From a virus (taxonomy: Duplodnaviria; Caudoviricetes): DNA of 64,000 nucleotides. The DNA lies in IMG/VR virus record IMGVR_UViG_2706795801_000001, positions 1-64,000 of that record. One strand, written 5' to 3'. The first letter of the stretch is position 1, and the number at the start of each line of letters is the position of its first letter. Positions 14,997-45,270 of the stretch are shown here, piece by piece. Both the position numbers and the translations under genes were made by a program. The notes beneath the pieces were generated by a model. It had not been told where the DNA came from. It ran no database searches and saw nothing but the letters and a program-made list of their open reading frames with translations.

Positions 14997-17509
14997 TTAT
15001 AAAGTGCAACCACCACCATCACAACCTACATCTACTACTTCCTCAACCTTTACTGATGTAGTAGAACCTGAATTAGTTTTACTGTTCACATAATACCTAG
15101 TTTTCATCCCCAGCATTGTCATATACATCCAGTTTTTAAGTAATTCAACACCCGTTATATCCCTTTTTGTGAAGTCTAAATACTCATCTGCTGATATAGA
15201 TTGGTCTGTTGTAGCTTGAATACAAGCGTACACTTCAATCATATCCTTAGCTGGAATATCATAGGCTAGCTCATAATATTGCTCATGTGTGTCAGCATTT
15301 GGTGCCAAGAACCTAGTCTTCTTTTTCCCGTTAGTCTTCACCACTTTAATACTACGGGCAGGCAGTATGCTATTGGTGCCATTGGTTGCAATCGATGAAC
15401 TTTCATTTGGCATATAATTGGTTGTTACACTAAATCTCACACCATACAAGAGAACATCTTTACGTAAATCTTCCCAGTTCTGAACCAGTCCTTGTTTGAC
15501 TACTTTAAACACGTTAGGGTTCATAGTATCTATAGGTAACCAACCATCTTTCCATTTAGTTTTGTACATCCAGTCACATTGCCCACGTTCTTTAGCTAAC
15601 CTGACAGAGGCTTTAATCATACTGAATGCATGTAACTCCGCTAACCTATGAATGTATTGTTTACCCTCTAACGAAGAGTATTTTAATTTCTTCTCAGCCA
15701 TATGTCCAGCTAAATCTGTAATACCCACTCCGATATTACGTCTAGCTTGAGCTGAATACTTCAGTGCTGGAAATGGATAATCCATTATATCTATCACATT
15801 GTCTATACTTAAGGCAGCGTAATATGCAACATCTTCCCATTCACTCTCTGAAACCCTACGTGCAACGATAGCTGACAAGCTACATAAACCAATCTCAGGA
15901 ATACTCCCATCTTTATTGACTGGTTGTGTTTCATTTAGTTGGTATACATTATCGAAACCTACAGTAGGGAACGCTGTTTCCTGACCATTTTATCCTAATT
16001 TTCATTAGGTGCGGATCATATCATCTCCCGTTCGGGGAGTCGGACGCTTTTTCACCCAGTGACTAAACTGTGCTACTTCCTGTTATTAAGCTTATTCGCA
16101 TAAGCTCAGGTGATCTCTGAACCTTCCTACTCCGTAGGCTTGGCTGCTGATTGCCATCATCTTTACATGTTAAGGTTTCCAGCAATTCATCCAATTATTC
16201 GACTTGTATTCCTACAAGAAGCTGCATCAGTTTACAGATTAGAACTATAAATTTTATTTAAGTGTGGTGTATGCCTATTAAGCTCATCAGTACGGTGTAA
16301 GTAAATCTGACCACTCTCTTGTCCTTGAATCAAAGCTTCCATTATAACCTTTCGGGCACTAATATATGTCTTAGGTTTAATAGATTTTTCGTACTCGTGG
16401 TACAATGTATCGAACACTGATTGATCTGCTAAATACATAGCTTCATACAATTCTGGAGCGTTCTGATAACTGACTAGCATCCACTGTTCATCATTATAAA
16501 CTTTTTGTGCAAATAACTTATTACTACCAAAAGAGTAATGTATGCCATCAACCCTTACCTTTGCCGCAGTTTTCTTACTCTTCCATGTTAATATATCCAT
16601 AATCTCAGGGTCGAGGCAGTTAACGTGCATAGTAGCTGAACCCCCTCTACTATTCTGTAAGTTAGCAGCAACTGCACTTTCAGTCATTTTATAGTAAGGA
16701 CGTTTACCTTGGTGGATAGTAGTACCACCTCGTACACCATCCCCCTTACTGCGGGTCTTAAGGTGAGAACCAATACCTGCTGAAGCACAGGTTAGCATAT
16801 ATGCTATGTGGTCACCAGCCGATAACGAATCTACAGTATCAAAAGTTGTAAACGTAGCGCAACTGGCGTATGACCTACTGGGAGTTCTAAGGTTAGTCAT
16901 AAAAGGCGTCGGTGCACAAATCTTCTTATCACTTAAATAAGTGTAATATTTAATTACATCATCTAATCTTCTGTGTTTTGGCATACCCTTCATATTTGCC
17001 ATAGCCATCCCCATGTACATGAATTGGGGTGACTCTAGTGCAATATCTTTTACTCTATTTCGGATAATATATTTGTCATTGATCTGTTTAATCTCTGGGT
17101 AAGAAGATTTCAAATCTTTAGAATGGTCTATTACCTCCTCAAGCTTATTAAATTCTTCTTCTGAGTATCCTAAAGATTCCCAGTACCCTAATGCTACCAT
17201 AGTATCATGGTGGTGTTTCAAGGTTGGAATCTTTTTGAAACCACCAAAAGCTTCTTTATAGATGATACCTGCTAACACCCTACCTGCTAACATGAAGTGC
17301 TTCTCATCAAATTCTTCGACACATGCATCAATTATAGCTTTATCAATATCTCGTGTGGTGCAATTATTACTTAGTAACTTTAATGCTTTGAATGAAATGT
17401 CACTCCAATTCACTTTTCTTGCTGCAGCCCATCTCATCTTCTTATTGAACTTTTCTGCGTCAAAAGGTACAGGTGTCCCATCACTCTTAATTACTGTGGT
17501 AATACTCAA
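14997..17509 (-). CDS. nrdA: Class Ia ribonucleotide reductase alpha subunit, two exons (17509-16234 and 15985-14997; 754 aa spliced)
   Basis: ATP cone, PTP, ASC; NLCQE restored on splicing; C-terminal CDGGGCTL. Confidence 0.93.
15986..16233 (-). mobile_element. ORF-less group I intron (248 nt) in nrdA
   Basis: 5' splice after U with P1 CTGT/GCAG, terminal G; P AATTGCTGGAAA, Q AATCAGCAG, R GTTCAGAGATCA, S ATGATATGATCC; removal gives AAT CTG T|GT CAG GAA. Confidence 0.92.
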
Positions 17510-41378: not shown

Positions 41379-41633
41379 ATGAAACATCAACAATACATTG
41401 CATGTAAACGTGATGGTACTTTTGAATTTAGAAATGGTGAGCCTGTATTAAAACAAGAAGGTGATATTGCAATATTTAATTGTGAAGATAGTTTGGATTT
41501 ATCACAAATTAGTATGTTATCCGATTACTTTTATAACAACCCATTTAAAACGGGTACGTTTTCTAATCCAGCAGTTTCGTTAGAAGAATCTAGAATTCGG
41601 ACGAAAGATAAAATTAACAAAATAAAAGTTTGA
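41379..41633 (+). CDS. Hypothetical protein
   Basis: 84 aa ORF. Confidence 0.6.
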   Translation: MKHQQYIACKRDGTFEFRNGEPVLKQEGDIAIFNCEDSLDLSQISMLSDYFYNNPFKTGTFSNPAVSLEESRIRTKDKINKIKV

Positions 41634-41658
41634 CACACTTAGATGTTCAAGGTATTAT
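41630..41658 (+). promoter_or_regulatory. Sigma70 promoter of the RNA operon
   Basis: TTGACA-17-TATTAT. Confidence 0.8.
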
Positions 41659-41891
41659 GTACTTATAGAAACAAACGGGAGTTAAACGAAGATGTTCGTG
41701 GTTGCCGAGTCATGATTGCACTGGAGACACCTTTAACAATGTGATAATCGGGGCTAGGTTGCGGTGCGTTGGGCCAATCTATGGACGCCATCGTAAGCTG
41801 TTATTTCATTCGATAATAAGGATGGTGATAATATCTCGCAGCATGAAGCGATAGACATGCAAGCAAAGTTAACGCTATGCGCCAAATGCGT

Positions 41892-42048
41892 TTAAATATT
41901 ATTTTTATGCTAACTTTGGTTTAACGGTATAACGAAGCCGCTGAAAAAGATAAGATAACCCAAAGGCCACGGGTCGTATTCTTTAGTAGGTTAGAGGCTT
42001 AGGCGTCAAGTTCGACTCTTGGCAGGTTAGCATAAAAATAATATTTAA
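41892..42048 (+). ncRNA. tRNA-like RNA with expanded anticodon arm and long closing stem
   Basis: D arm GTTTAACGGTATAAC; T arm TCAAG-TTCGACT-CTTGG; stem AAGCC/GGCTT around a ~55 nt insert; 23-bp perfect terminal inverted repeat. Confidence 0.7.
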
Positions 42049-42124
42049 GCGTAATTAGCTCAGATGGTAGAGCGCTATCCTTCCAAGTTAGTGGTCATCG
42101 GTTCGAATCCGATATTACGCTCCA
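42049..42124 (+). tRNA. tRNA-Gly(TCC)
   Basis: Full cloverleaf GCGTAAT...CT-TCC-AA...TTCGAAT...ATTACGC-T-CCA. Confidence 0.95.
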
Positions 42125-42191
42125 AATGTCCAGTTGCAGGATTCTGGCACACGGTAATAACAACCGTATAATCAACACCTGCTTTAATTAA

Positions 42192-42268
42192 ATCTCGTTA
42201 GCTCAGTTGGATAGAGCAACAGCCTTCTAAGCTGTGGGTCGAAAGTTCGAATCTTTCACGGGATACCA
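42192..42268 (+). tRNA. tRNA-Arg(TCT)
   Basis: Full cloverleaf ATCTCGT...CT-TCT-AA...TTCGAAT...ACGGGAT-A-CCA. Confidence 0.95.
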
Positions 42269-42286
42269 ACTACTACACGTTAGTAC

Positions 42287-42315
42287 TAGACAACACCATT
42301 GAGATATAGTATAGT
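42287..42315 (+). promoter_or_regulatory. Internal sigma70 promoter
   Basis: TAGACA-17-TATAGT. Confidence 0.6.
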
Positions 42316-42319
42316 TTGT

Positions 42320-43204
42320 GAGAAGGTTGTTTTGTCTTAGGGACCTATGATTGTAAGACCCAAGTGATACCTGCGTACAGGATGACAATCCGAATGACTG
42401 ACGTAAACAGTCTATATTTTAAAGTGTTTGGTAAGTTGATAGTGCGGCTCAATTTTAAATGGTATGAGGTGGCAGCATATCAGTCAAACACTTTAAAATG
42501 TAATTACATTGAAGTTATTATCATAGCTTCAATCAATTGTTACATTAAAAGGAGGATAAGCCACCTCCTTTCTGAGATACCATAAGAAATTGCGACTATG
42601 GTTAGAAGTTTAAATGGCAAACAATGTTGGTTGGCGCAGATTACGTCAGTTGCGGCAAAAGGCTTCGTTTACTGGAGTCGTTTAAAAGGTGGGCGAATAC
42701 AACACCTAACCAACAACACTTCTGATGTGTCTAAACTCAAGACGTATAGTAAATAAAAAGCTCTGCAAACCAGTAACGGAACTGGGAGAAGAAAGAAACA
42801 AAACGGTACGGAGTTATGTGGTTCTCCAGCAATACTATACACACTCCTCTGAAGAGTTTAATCTCAAGACAATACTCCTGCCCCGTCCTCGTAAGAGTTG
42901 GAGTTCTTTCCTGTAACAAGGTTGTAGCCAGAGTGCACATAAAAGTTATAATTCGGATTTAAGGTTGTTAGTCATCCTTAAGTAAATTATTGTAAAACTA
43001 ACAAATTCTACTGTATACTTGCCAATGGTTTAAGGTAGTCTTATAGCGGAAACGCACTTCATTGGCGCGATAATGTTTGTTAGTATTTATATACATCCCT
43101 CATTAACATGAGTTCTAGTTGTAATTACACAAGGCAGACTGCTAACGTCCCACATACAAAAGAGAGTACCACTCAAGTGTGGGTATTTGGTTGTTAGCCA
43201 GTCC
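42320..43204 (+). ncRNA. Series of small stem-enclosed structured RNA modules
   Basis: Closing stems at 42416-42499, 42625-42715, 42744-42840, 42997-43084 and 43137-43203; no credible ORFs. Confidence 0.55.
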
Positions 43205-43970
43205 GTGACTGGGTGATAAAACGACCGCTGGTATTGTAATTTAAGTTGTGGGTAACGTGATACCTTATGACCACACCCATGTTACAATGATGGTAATGTC
43301 GTTCATGAAAGTCATATTCCCTACCGAACCCAGATACTGGTTCAACACCTTGCCATTAATATATGGTTTCTGTGCAACGCAGACTAAGTAGGTTAATTTC
43401 GGGTCTGTTGTACAAGGTAACGCATATGCGTTAAATAGAAAGTTCCAATGGTTACGACCTTGGTAACGGCAAAGTCCTTTCCTATGCACCAATCAACGAT
43501 GTCATAGTCAGAGGCAAACACTAGGACATAACCCTGCCTAGTATAAAACGGTTTTGGGTGTAATAATATGTAAGCGACCACATGACTTTATCGTGGGGAC
43601 GGCTGGTATTCTGGTAAGATGATCCAAGACTCCATTATAATGGTAAACTTAAAGAACGCAAATGTGATGCTTTAGGCTAAAGCGTGGTGAGTGGGAGTAA
43701 CATCCAATTTAAGCAATGAGCCTTCAGGTAGCTCCTGAAATGTCCACGGATTCACATATATAGCTTGCACATGACCACTGATTCAAGCCAGTGCATAAGC
43801 AACTCCTGTCATTCGTGGCACTCGGTTGGGAGTATAATCTGGACTGGGAGACTAATAAAACCTTGTATTGTTCAAGGTCAGAAGTAAGACACTGTGAATG
43901 TCTAGGTAGACGTACTGACACATTGAGTCCCACCAAGTATTGGGTATCTACTCATACAGATTAACACCCT
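43205..43970 (+). ncRNA. Large ornate ncRNA candidate (ROOL/GOLLD size class)
   Basis: About 760 nt with no credible ORF; many hairpins and long-range helix AAAGTCAT(43308)/ATGACTTT(43582); downstream of tRNAs; ends at a terminator. Confidence 0.55.
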
Positions 43971-43997
43971 TTCAGAAATGACTGGGTGTTTTCTTTT
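43962..43997 (+). terminator. Rho-independent terminator closing the RNA operon
   Basis: AACACCC...GGGTGTT followed by TTCTTTT. Confidence 0.75.
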
Positions 43998-44073
43998 ACC
44001 TGAAATTTGATCAGGGTTATCAGTACATGATAATATGATCTTATGAAACACACTATTAACAAGGAATAACAAA

Positions 44074-44265
44074 TTGCAATGTAGTTGCGGGAATACAATA
44101 CACAGACCGTCCTATACCTCTAAATCTAAATATGATTATATTTGTAATGAATGTAAAGGTTACGAAGTAGAAGACTATGATATACCTCCATCGGGGGAAG
44201 ATTTACTAAATATTAATTTAGAAAACTATAATAGATATGAATTAAGTGGTGATGGAAATGACTAA
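44074..44265 (+). CDS. Small zinc-finger protein
   Basis: CSCG...CNEC. Confidence 0.6.
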   Translation: MQCSCGNTIHRPSYTSKSKYDYICNECKGYEVEDYDIPPSGEDLLNINLENYNRYELSGDGND

Positions 44266-44611
44266 TAAGAATAAAGGTGGTAGACCTACATCAAGTCAAG
44301 TAGCTGAAAGAGAATGGGGTGCGCTGATTACAGACATGAAAGCTATGTCCCCTAAACTTATGAAGAAAGCTATGAAGAAGTACTCCGACATACTGGACTC
44401 TGAGAAGGCATCTGAATCTGCAACGCTACGAGCCTGCTCTGGAGCCTTCGATATAGTTAAATATTTGAATGACCTAGAAAAACGTGTGGCTGATATGGAT
44501 GCTGAAGAAGAAGCTACTGCAGAAGGTTTATTAGCTGCAGTGGTTGCTGAAGAAAAGAAGCCTATGATTAGTCTAGTGGCATTCGAACCACCAGAAAAGA
44601 AAGTGATGTAG
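44246..44611 (+). CDS. Hypothetical protein, possible terminase small subunit
   Basis: N-terminal KGGRPT followed by helical region; upstream of terL. Confidence 0.4.
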   Translation: MVMEMTNKNKGGRPTSSQVAEREWGALITDMKAMSPKLMKKAMKKYSDILDSEKASESATLRACSGAFDIVKYLNDLEKRVADMDAEEEATAEGLLAAVVAEEKKPMISLVAFEPPEKKVM

Positions 44612-44659
44612 GTTATATTAAGTTTGACTGTATGTTCATGTTACTGTTATAATTACGTA

Positions 44660-44825
44660 TAGGTTGTGTGGCGGGGTTAAGTTCCTCCTCCTTACTTCAT
44701 CTGGCTACACTTCCTATATCCCTCCTAAAATGAGAGTAGTATATAACAGCTACCAGATATCTACAACCACACTTCCTCCTTCCCCCGCCTCATCAAATAC
44801 GTATGAGTGCGGGGTTTTTCTTTTT
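44660..44825 (+). ncRNA. Stand-alone C-rich small RNA
   Basis: TTGACT-18-TATAAT promoter with extended TG; intrinsic terminator 44783-44825; several TTCCT/CCTCCT motifs. Confidence 0.6.
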
Positions 44826-44871
44826 ATAAAATTTAAAATTAGTGTTGACACGATAGGTGTGAGGTAATATA

Positions 44872-45270
44872 GTGAGTGTATTATTAATTGAAGAAGGGAG
44901 GTTTATAATGTTTACTAAATTAAAATTGTGGTGGAGACTTGAGACTGGTAAGGATTTGCTTGAACAATTACAGAAAGGGTATGAGGAGCAGGTTATTATT
45001 ATCAGCGCCCTAGAGGATCAACTGGCCTCTTTAACTAGAACAGTTAAACTGCACACTAGGGTAGATGCAGATGTGAGTAGTACTAAGTATGATAAGTCTG
45101 TTATCATATGTTCTGGTAGATGGAAGAACCATTCGTACTCCGAGGTGTTTGAAGTCGAGGGTGGATTACTAAAAGATACTGTGGATATTCTTCGTGATAA
45201 GGAGAAAACGCACTCACGAGGTTATTACGATCTACCTTATGGTACTAATAGATTCTTTGGAGGTTTATAA
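44872..45270 (+). CDS. Hypothetical protein
   Basis: Probable start MFTKL with GGAGG RBS. Confidence 0.7.
   Translation: MSVLLIEEGRFIMFTKLKLWWRLETGKDLLEQLQKGYEEQVIIISALEDQLASLTRTVKLHTRVDADVSSTKYDKSVIICSGRWKNHSYSEVFEVEGGLLKDTVDILRDKEKTHSRGYYDLPYGTNRFFGGL

Follow-up and report, generated by a model that had tools for sequence, protein, structure and literature searches.

The gap between genes gp140 and gp139 of the cholera phage ICP1 gives rise to the most abundant ICP1 transcript, a long non-coding RNA (lncRNA) of ~800 nucleotides (nt) whose size has been likened to that of GOLLD and ROOL (PMC7567579). Related phages are reported to conserve an lncRNA upstream of the lysis genes, its sequence being described as 'highly divergent' (PMC9040626). 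[quoted passage not shown] For this, the top transcript of a heavily studied phage, function, structure family and sequence homologues were previously undefined. Here we describe a non-coding stretch that follows the transfer RNA (tRNA) genes of a Shewanella phage, and which is, judged by its sequence, the counterpart of the ICP1 lncRNA: a terminator-ended locus, free of open reading frames (ORFs), after phage tRNA genes. 'The window' denotes the DNA analysed, 64,000 nt that form the first 64 kb of a 133.8-kb IMG/VR record (IMGVR_UViG_2706795801_000001) with terminal repeats; all coordinates are window positions, on the + strand unless stated. Embedded in the stretch is a mobile small RNA (sRNA), 'module A', that is tied in bacteria to an AbiF/D-like defence gene, an association previously unreported. 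The original prediction had placed here a candidate ornate RNA of ~760 nt, in a probable gammaproteobacterial phage. The host group was right; the window phage is a close relative of Shewanella phage 1/40, from Baltic Sea ice, with 96% identity where the two can be aligned.

A permissive blastn search against 50,697 phage records returned short, very similar matches, all in unannotated gaps, and pattern scans of IMG/VR and metagenomes added four relatives (L022, L023, L024 and L029). Exact-pattern scans of the same sources gave few further homologues; many chance matches in coding DNA were left out. Short blocks of the stretch match unannotated gaps in very distant phages at 83-94% identity. 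Block B (43879-43918) agrees with the 3' end of the ICP1 lncRNA at 36 of 40 positions (90%); its first part (43879-43913) matches records of ICP1-group cholera phages at 94% over 35 nt, and matches Vibrio phage 1.101.O as well. The ICP1 match falls within the ~1-kb gp140/gp139 gap, 160 nt before gp139. That in 1.101.O falls in a 1.26-kb gap immediately 3' of tRNA-Gly(TCC) and tRNA-Met, a layout that recurs in Vibrio phages 1.084.O, 1.187.O, 184E37.1 and IBT_VpB-34. Block B is present in eight distinct phage sequences, among them four metagenomic phages and, in post-tRNA gaps, 1.101.O and 1.084.O. Three further likenesses to ICP1 were found. The terminator tail, GGUGUUUUCUUUUACCUG, is identical at 17 of 18 positions to that of the ICP1 lncRNA; the centre of module Y (43272-43300) corresponds to positions 368-396 of the ICP1 gap (24/29 identical, 83%); and the 5' half of module A has a 14-nt match in ICP1, which holds no intact module A. 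The segment 43759-43800, in turn, matches T4-like Aeromonas phages in the permissive search.

The two loci are alike in several ways. Both are ORF-free gaps of at least 1 kb, on the strand of the flanking genes, and both have a promoter-to-terminator length of ~0.9-1.0 kb as predicted from candidate promoters; for ICP1, a sigma70-like candidate (TTGACA-18-TAAGAT) and a terminator in the gap predict ~885 nt. Both carry the 3' block CAGAAGUAAGACACUGUGAAU.UCUAGG.AGACGU and the matching terminator tail, and both are followed, a few genes downstream, by a further CU-rich small RNA. They differ in that ICP1 has no tRNAs, most of the sequence cannot be aligned, and the downstream genes are not detectably homologous. 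Furthermore, the ICP1 lncRNA is a transcript seen in published work (Barth et al. 2020, Boyd et al. 2021), whereas its counterpart in the window is predicted from sequence. The proteins around the stretch have no detectable similarity to those of ICP1, so conservation is far stronger in the RNA blocks than in the surrounding genes. This is a real, conserved RNA locus and a new member of the ICP1-type lncRNAs, which it links, through covarying blocks, to a Shewanella phage, several marine Vibrio phages and metagenomic phages. With a published counterpart, it is not the wholly new class that had been offered as one possibility. The CU-rich small RNA candidate of the window occupies 44624-44825, with a promoter and a terminator of its own; its core, AAGUUCCUCCUCCU...AUAUCCCUC, and its terminator tail resemble the ICP1 gp136/gp135 gap, from which a transcript of ~300 nt has been reported.

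Module A (43763-43800) is the hairpin GCUU-GCAC-[AUGACCACUGAUUCAAGCCA]-GUGC-AU-AAGC: an 8-bp stem with a 2-nt bulge on its 3' side, closed by an invariant loop of 20 nt, AUGACCACUGAUUCAAGCCA. Its copies were collected by a pattern that did not require complementarity, and one chance match in coding DNA (L012) was left out. In nine sequences, four of the eight stem pairs show compensatory change and 97% of cells are paired; in eight short-form copies, five of eight pairs are compensatory and 94% are paired, versus 22-63% for slid controls. These structure alignments, like the others described here, are small (4-12 sequences). A covariance model built on module A, R2, identifies one copy each in the window, 1.101.O, VpB-34, 184E37.1 and L029, and none in ICP1, 1.084.O, 1.187.O, L022-L024, phage 1/40 or T4. 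The distribution of block B, traced with its own model, R1, is complementary to this, with partial overlap. Both models re-find sequences from which they were built, and scores on those are not independent; matches of R2 to bacterial plasmids, described below, are.

Module A is not confined to lncRNA gaps. It occurs, with an identical loop, in the 51-nt spacer between two tRNA genes of Vibrio phage D484, between tRNA-Ile and tRNA-Trp in Vibrio phage VS1, between tRNA-Val and tRNA-Pro in contig L016, and in the tRNA clusters of T4-like Aeromonas phages and Acinetobacter phage D22. In all, 32 phage records match. These tRNA-side copies are unannotated in every record and are not represented in Rfam 15. 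Positions were noted for six of them (L016:8930-8967, L040:1192-1229, L041:1209-1246, L039:1193-1230, L005:2505-2542 and L021:13401-13438), which come from T4-like phages of Aeromonas and Vibrio, a Saclayvirus phage of Acinetobacter and a viral contig of 166 kb. Two other interpretations of the loop were discarded. Read as a peptide (AUG ACC ACU GAU UCA AGC) it lacks a Shine-Dalgarno sequence, shows no change at synonymous sites and a few non-synonymous ones, and is flanked by a stem that covaries; as a mimic of an anticodon arm or T-loop it fails since the inner pairings differ between copies. No antisense target of the loop was found in E. coli genomes.

An exact scan for the 20-mer loop through 185,579 species genomes gave four matches: Shewanella, Psychromonas, Thalassotalea and a Vibrio metagenome-assembled genome. 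In bacteria, module A is a self-contained gene of ~90 nt that includes a promoter of the TTGACA/TATA type, another small hairpin and a terminator. In Shewanella, Psychromonas and Thalassotalea it sits between a dusA-adjacent integrase and the gene for a 303-amino-acid protein that matches the abortive-infection (Abi) family Abi_2 of Pfam (7.6e-6) and, over its full length, PD-T4-5 of PADLOC (4.5e-53). Module A lies 52-59 bp upstream of this PD-T4-5/AbiF-D-family gene and is divergent from it. The three dusA-island genomes represent one lineage, and independent contexts were therefore sought among plasmids. The conjugative plasmid pS22302 of Shewanella baltica OS223 carries module A together with an Abi gene whose product is 76% identical; a plasmid of Acinetobacter variabilis does likewise (61% identical), flanked by BrnT/BrnA rather than an integrase; and on Vibrio parahaemolyticus plasmid p2 the Abi protein is 65% identical, its gene split into two ORFs. 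In all three plasmids inspected, module A is on the opposite strand and immediately upstream of the Abi gene, at 59 bp from the start codon in S. baltica and 52 bp in A. variabilis. A second A. variabilis plasmid also carries module A. R2 gives 65.7 bits on the S. baltica plasmid and 56.4 bits on that of A. variabilis, and the loop of module A in the window is identical to the loop on the Shewanella baltica, Acinetobacter and Vibrio plasmids.

The pairing of sRNA and Abi gene was inspected at seven loci in four independent contexts, among which Abi protein identity runs from 100% down to 61% and the remaining neighbours differ (cassettes at L043:6420-7487, L065:1404-2409, L066:1410-2403 and L068:856-1853). 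The V. parahaemolyticus homologue has an RNDIAH stretch that, read from the sequence, fits the Rx4H motif of HEPN proteins. V. cholerae, S. algae, V. parahaemolyticus and A. pittii have close homologues of the Abi protein, and belong to genera that are the hosts of many module A-bearing phages. The sRNA accompanies a validated anti-T4 abortive-infection family, on plasmids and islands in the very genera that serve these phages as hosts. Orphan copies, with no Abi gene, are found in a second bacterial island, beside a Panacea-domain pair and an integrase, and on a prophage-like contig of 76 kb. In phages, module A is an orphan: tblastn detected no homologue of the Abi protein in the window or in any phage locus.

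Proteins of the AbiF/AbiD group are HEPN RNase toxins that are inactive when bound by a short, cognate non-coding RNA (ncRNA); the ncRNA acts in cis and in trans, mutants with compensatory changes in the stem remain active, and a hairpin from the cos region of phage sk1 inhibits AbiF (PMC12737573; 10.1101/2025.04.15.648962; PMC13064643). PD-T4-5 is a distant relative of AbiF/D, and acts as an abortive-infection defence against T4 (PMC9519451). Since AbiF-type toxins are silenced by cognate ncRNAs, and since module A is paired with an Abi gene, the phage copy is most likely a decoy antitoxin; the lack of an adjacent Abi gene in phages is what one would expect of a decoy. Bacterial module A would, then, be the antitoxin partner of the neighbouring Abi subfamily, and phage module A a decoy made in bulk from tRNA operons or lncRNAs, which would bind the toxin and keep it silent when host transcription collapses during infection. 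We put the chance that module A plays these two parts at slightly better than even. The explanation as a whole, an ICP1-type modular lncRNA locus with module A as a decoy antitoxin, could as well be wrong as right. As a copy of an Abi-side sRNA, module A suggests an anti-defence role that can be put to the test: phage 1/40, which has no module A, should be sensitive to the sRNA-Abi cassette, and its module-bearing relatives should not.

Described systems offer partial parallels. The ncRNAs of AbiF/AbiD type III toxin-antitoxin systems (AbiFr, RCd22; RF03085) are, like bacterial module A, short hairpin RNAs beside an Abi_2/HEPN gene; in both, unpaired nucleotides are conserved and the stem accepts compensatory change. 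They differ from bacterial module A, which is divergent, has its own promoter and terminator, finds no match with RF03085, is accompanied by an Abi protein of the PD-T4-5 branch, and is only a putative antitoxin. The pseudo-ToxI of Pectobacterium phage PhiTE is a phage-encoded antitoxin mimic in the form of a tandem repeat array. Like it, and like the sk1 cos hairpin, module A would be a lytic-phage RNA that resembles or replaces a host RNA antitoxin and allows escape from abortive infection. Pseudo-ToxI is made of tandem repeats, however, and module A is a single hairpin, in tRNA arrays or within a long RNA, whose effect on defence is inferred; no families of ToxI-type tandem direct repeats (30-50 nt) are present in 41600-44100. 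RNAs C and D of T4 (rnaC, rnaD), encoded where the tRNA cluster ends, are also stable non-tRNA species located with phage tRNAs, and probably processed with them, but they have no visible sequence similarity to any module of the window, and neither R2 nor R1 matches at the T4 locus. Under the decoy interpretation, a non-tRNA element found in tRNA arrays of T4-like phages of Aeromonas, Vibrio and Acinetobacter would gain a concrete role and, if the interpretation is correct, RNA-based counter-defence would reach beyond ToxIN to the AbiF/D-Cas13 lineage.

Several observations weigh against the explanation as a whole. The dusA-island cases, although from three genera, count as a single observation. 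RF03085 (the abiF motif) has no match at E<=10 in the window or in the bacterial module A-Abi loci, and known AbiF ncRNAs are upstream of their gene in the same orientation, whereas module A is divergent. No module A lies near the distant relatives of PD-T4-5 (24-33% identity, including one on a small E. coli plasmid). The other modules of the window, of 1.187.O and of ICP1 have no counterpart in plasmids or in the Shewanellaceae genomes sampled. Finally, module A is absent, by covariance model, from ICP1, L022-L024 and phage 1/40, and therefore cannot explain the common core, block B. A wider interpretation is that ICP1-type lncRNAs, and the non-tRNA inserts of phage tRNA arrays, are RNA anti-defence cassettes composed of mimics of HEPN-toxin sRNAs. 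The mimics, strung together and highly expressed, would silence AbiF/D, PD-T4-5 and related HEPN-type toxins, and the hairpins with the motif GACCAC would be a family of protein-binding decoys of differing specificities. This might account for the abundance of the RNA, and for a turnover of modules like that of a defence/counter-defence island. Module turnover, GACCAC enrichment and the abundance of the ICP1 RNA are what it draws on, and we regard it as doubtful.

The turnover of modules is plain from close comparisons. Module X (43005-43135), found by blastn and alignment, is homologous to a segment of L023, and module Y (43242-43408), which contains one AUGACCAC motif (GACCAC at 43269), is 87% identical to L023. 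X precedes Y in the window; Y precedes X in L023. Module W (43516-43559), a hairpin closed by CUAGG/CCUAG, occurs in phage 1/40, L023 and L022; in L022 its 44 nt are 100% identical and the flanks have diverged. Phage 1/40 lacks 43006-43433 and 43560-43945, and the second of these gaps, evident from the alignment, removes both module A and block B. A further indel of the stretch gives it an extra ~550 nt at window position 42413 (L001:3000-3672), which include the small annotated ORF S140_84. The segment of 386 nt that 1/40 lacks is bounded on both sides by TTGGGT (43554-43559 and 43940-43945), a microhomology that explains its deletion with no need for an intron; it matches no Rfam model, and its boundaries cannot yield the U (5' splice site) and G (3' end) of a group I intron, so that an intron was rejected. 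In 12 such gaps GACCAC is the most enriched hexamer (22 occurrences versus 2.3 expected, in 11 of 12 sequences), and is strand-specific, with only three on the opposite strand; AGACGU occurs 16 times versus 3.9 expected, and never on the opposite strand. The density of GACCAC is 1.67/kb in the window gap versus 0.10/kb in the rest of the window, a 17-fold difference.

The stretch reads, then, as a string of modules that fold separately and that related phages exchange, rearrange and lose, not as one ornate fold. The alternative with which it must be compared is a single, large, globally folded RNA like GOLLD or ROOL, perhaps multimeric, in which the conserved blocks form the core and the variable parts are peripheral. 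Its length (~0.8-1 kb) and its place beside tRNAs fit such an RNA, GOLLD and ROOL being large phage non-coding RNAs often near tRNA genes. So do the conserved short blocks, the GNRA-type hairpins in relatives (GCC-GNRA-GGC in ICP1, L024, L029 and VpB34), and the comment of Barth et al. that the abundance of the ICP1 RNA is GOLLD/ROOL-like. Family membership can be dismissed. We ran Rfam 15 cmscan on the whole window at gathering scores, where it reports the two tRNAs and a group I intron at 15993-16243 and nothing more, and on 41500-45000 at E<=10 with permissive filters, where GOLLD, ROOL, OLE, the abiF motif and introns are all absent and only tRNAs and noise of at most 18.5 bits appear; the suggestion of a diverged GOLLD/ROOL member accordingly falls. 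The minimum free energy (MFE) of the 791-nt stretch is no better than that of shuffled sequences (z = -1.0 on the + strand, -0.8 on the - strand). L023 has its modules in a different order, and close relatives differ in the modules that they carry; the long-range helix is not conserved; and module A stands alone as a gene elsewhere. Modules that are shuffled, gained and lost, with covariation limited to local hairpins, argue against one global fold of ~760 nt, which we consider quite improbable. What remains of the ornate RNA is a non-coding locus after two tRNA genes, with a terminator.

There are three other explanations. As has been proposed for ICP1, the stretch might be a regulatory lncRNA or a base-pairing sponge, sequestering sRNAs of a satellite or of the host or promoting the turnover of transcripts. 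The Hi-GRIL-seq chimeras tie the ICP1 lncRNA to many PLE and ICP1 transcripts, although their authors themselves caution about non-specific ligation. The loops, which are long, single-stranded and invariant (20 nt in module A and, in block B, CUGNGAA and AGACGU), would suit base pairing, and the ARN-rich CAGAAGUAAG before the terminator is, on direct reading, as in Hfq-binding sRNAs. But the loops do not vary between phages of Acinetobacter, Aeromonas, Vibrio and Shewanella, no target complementary to them came to light, E. coli genomes giving nothing, and the pairing of sRNA with an Abi gene points, for module A, to a protein partner; we think a sponge unlikely. To view the stretch instead as a functionless trailer of the tRNA operon, made of processing or stability hairpins, recombination scars and remnants of mobile inserts, suits its mosaic structure, the 6-bp microhomology at the indel, the dispensability of 43560-43945 in cultured phage 1/40, and the homing endonuclease genes near the locus in relatives (e.g. 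HNH in 1.084.O). Blocks that stay 90-100% identical between phages whose local proteins have no detectable similarity are not expected of a trailer, nor is strong stem covariation around invariant loops, nor is the rank of this RNA as the top ICP1 transcript, and such an origin is very unlikely. The last explanation keeps the Abi protein and inverts the relationship: module A would be its activator or guide, and the phage copy would titrate, mis-program or even trigger the nuclease. The guide-RNA-dependent Cas13 arose from the AbiF lineage, and divergent orientation with a separate promoter is unlike classical cis antitoxins. Every characterized AbiF/D ncRNA, however, neutralizes its toxin, and a phage would not retain a trigger of abortive infection, yet many lytic phages carry module A; this is the least probable of the alternatives. 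The decoy antitoxin remains the interpretation that we prefer for module A.

We turn now to the helices themselves. A long irregular hairpin had been proposed at 43220-43303. It does appear in the single-sequence MFE fold, but nothing in the nearest homologue, L023, corresponds to its 5' arm, and in a two-sequence consensus fold (window and L023) 43257-43315 pairs locally in another way. The long-range helix proposed to enclose ~270 nt does exist as a perfect 8-bp complement, of AAAGUCAU (43308-43315) with AUGACUUU (43582-43589), but is not conserved: in L023 both strands have changed without compensation, and the intervening modules are rearranged. Other hairpins fare better. Module Z (43473-43518), CCU../..AGG closing CUAUG/CAUAG, was found by RNAalifold in four sequences (window, phage 1/40, L023 and Vibrio phage 1.084.O); 9/9 pairs are kept, one with a compensatory change from A-U to G-C. 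A small hairpin at 43568-43583, AUGU-[AAGCGACC]-ACAU, read directly from the sequences and not formally counted, has the compensatory stem variants ACGU/AUGU (L023, L022) and ACGU/ACGU (1.084.O).

Block B and its flanks were compared in eight homologues. Just before it is the hairpin ACCUUG-UAUUGUU-CAAGGU (43860-43878); this CCTTG/CAAGG pairing was predicted correctly, and homologues mostly fold a hairpin there that abuts CAGAAG. One ending 0-1 nt before CAGAAG is clear in 6/8 homologues, with differing stems (ACCUA/UAGGU, ACUCUUA/UAAGAGU, CUC/GAG and CCCUC/GAGGG); L022 has only a 3-bp ACU/AGU. Block B consists of CAGAAGUA, two hairpins and then GA. The first hairpin, AGACA-[CUGUGAA]-UGUCU (43887-43903), is invariant as AGACA-[CUGNGAA]-UGUCU, so that the predicted AGACA/TGTCT is kept in 8/8 homologues. 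The second, GGU-[AGACGU]-ACU (43905-43916), has a 3-bp stem that is paired in 100% of the eight sequences, with compensatory change in two of three pairs (GGG/CCC, GGU/ACU, GAC/GUU and GGU/GCC) and an invariant loop. The predicted GTCAG/CTGAC clashes with this stem, is possible in only 2/8 sequences (window and L029), and is not supported; TTCAGG/CCTGAA (43723-43739) falls in an insert specific to the window. R1 scores 75-81 bits on the sequences it was built from, and at loci without the exact block it picks up no diverged version. Beyond block B, comparison of homologues reveals a 3' domain (43925-43953) in which GAGU (43925-43928) pairs with ACUC (43950-43953) and encloses CCCA..UGGG; in L022 and L023 the inner hairpin is CUGAAG..CUUCAG instead.

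The lncRNA gaps of Vibrio phages contain a second recurrent module, not found in the window: a hairpin with loop AUUGACCACAG and a covarying stem (GAAGU/ACUUC, GUAGU/ACUAC or AUACG/CGUAU). AAGUGG(U), ~15 nt later, could pair with the loop as a pseudoknot. Approximate sites are L004:2230-2290, L007:2540-2600, L008:3100-3170, L009:780-850 and L010:3100-3170, and in L024 the module lies about 110 nt before block B.

Upstream of the stretch are the genes for tRNA-Gly(TCC) (42049-42124) and tRNA-Arg(TCT) (42192-42268), both identified by ARAGORN and scoring 68 bits with the Rfam tRNA model. The ~1.8 kb 3' of them contains no credible gene; the longest stop-free frame within 43000-44000 is 75 codons' worth (75 amino acids). 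A consensus scan alone provides two sigma70-like promoter candidates, TAGCCA-16-TATAAT (42925-42952) and TTGTAA-18-TATACT (42990-43019), and yields no more such candidates than it does in shuffled sequences. Transcription of the stretch, which we infer, might equally start at the tRNA operon promoter (41630-41658) and reach it by read-through. It would end at an intrinsic terminator (43964-43997) formed by ACACCC (43964-43969) and GGGTGT (43984-43989), followed by a U-run. The first genes beyond begin at 44074; the ORFs there match only PHROGs of unknown function, and have no similarity to ICP1 gp139-136. The putative promoter motif TGTTAGTATTTATATACATCC occurs only once in the window and is therefore not a repeated phage promoter. 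The motif sequences of the stretch were not found in the literature searched.

A few smaller features of the window deserve mention. The group I intron (15993-16243) is on the - strand, scores 63.9 bits with Rfam Intron_gpI, and is unrelated to the non-coding stretch. Two direct repeats of 28 nt (42716-42743 and 42843-42870; ACACUUCUGAUGUGU.UAAACUCAAGAC) are 79% identical; the first ends in an AGACGU motif, and one copy abuts module Y directly in L023. The motif AGUCCGUGAC.GGGU, preceded by CCUGUAA.AAGGUU, is present at 43193-43220 and 42893-42934 and in Vibrio phage 1.101.O. It is present, too, just 5' of module A in Aeromonas phage AS-zj (L005:2449-2489), and may be another module that these phages have in common.

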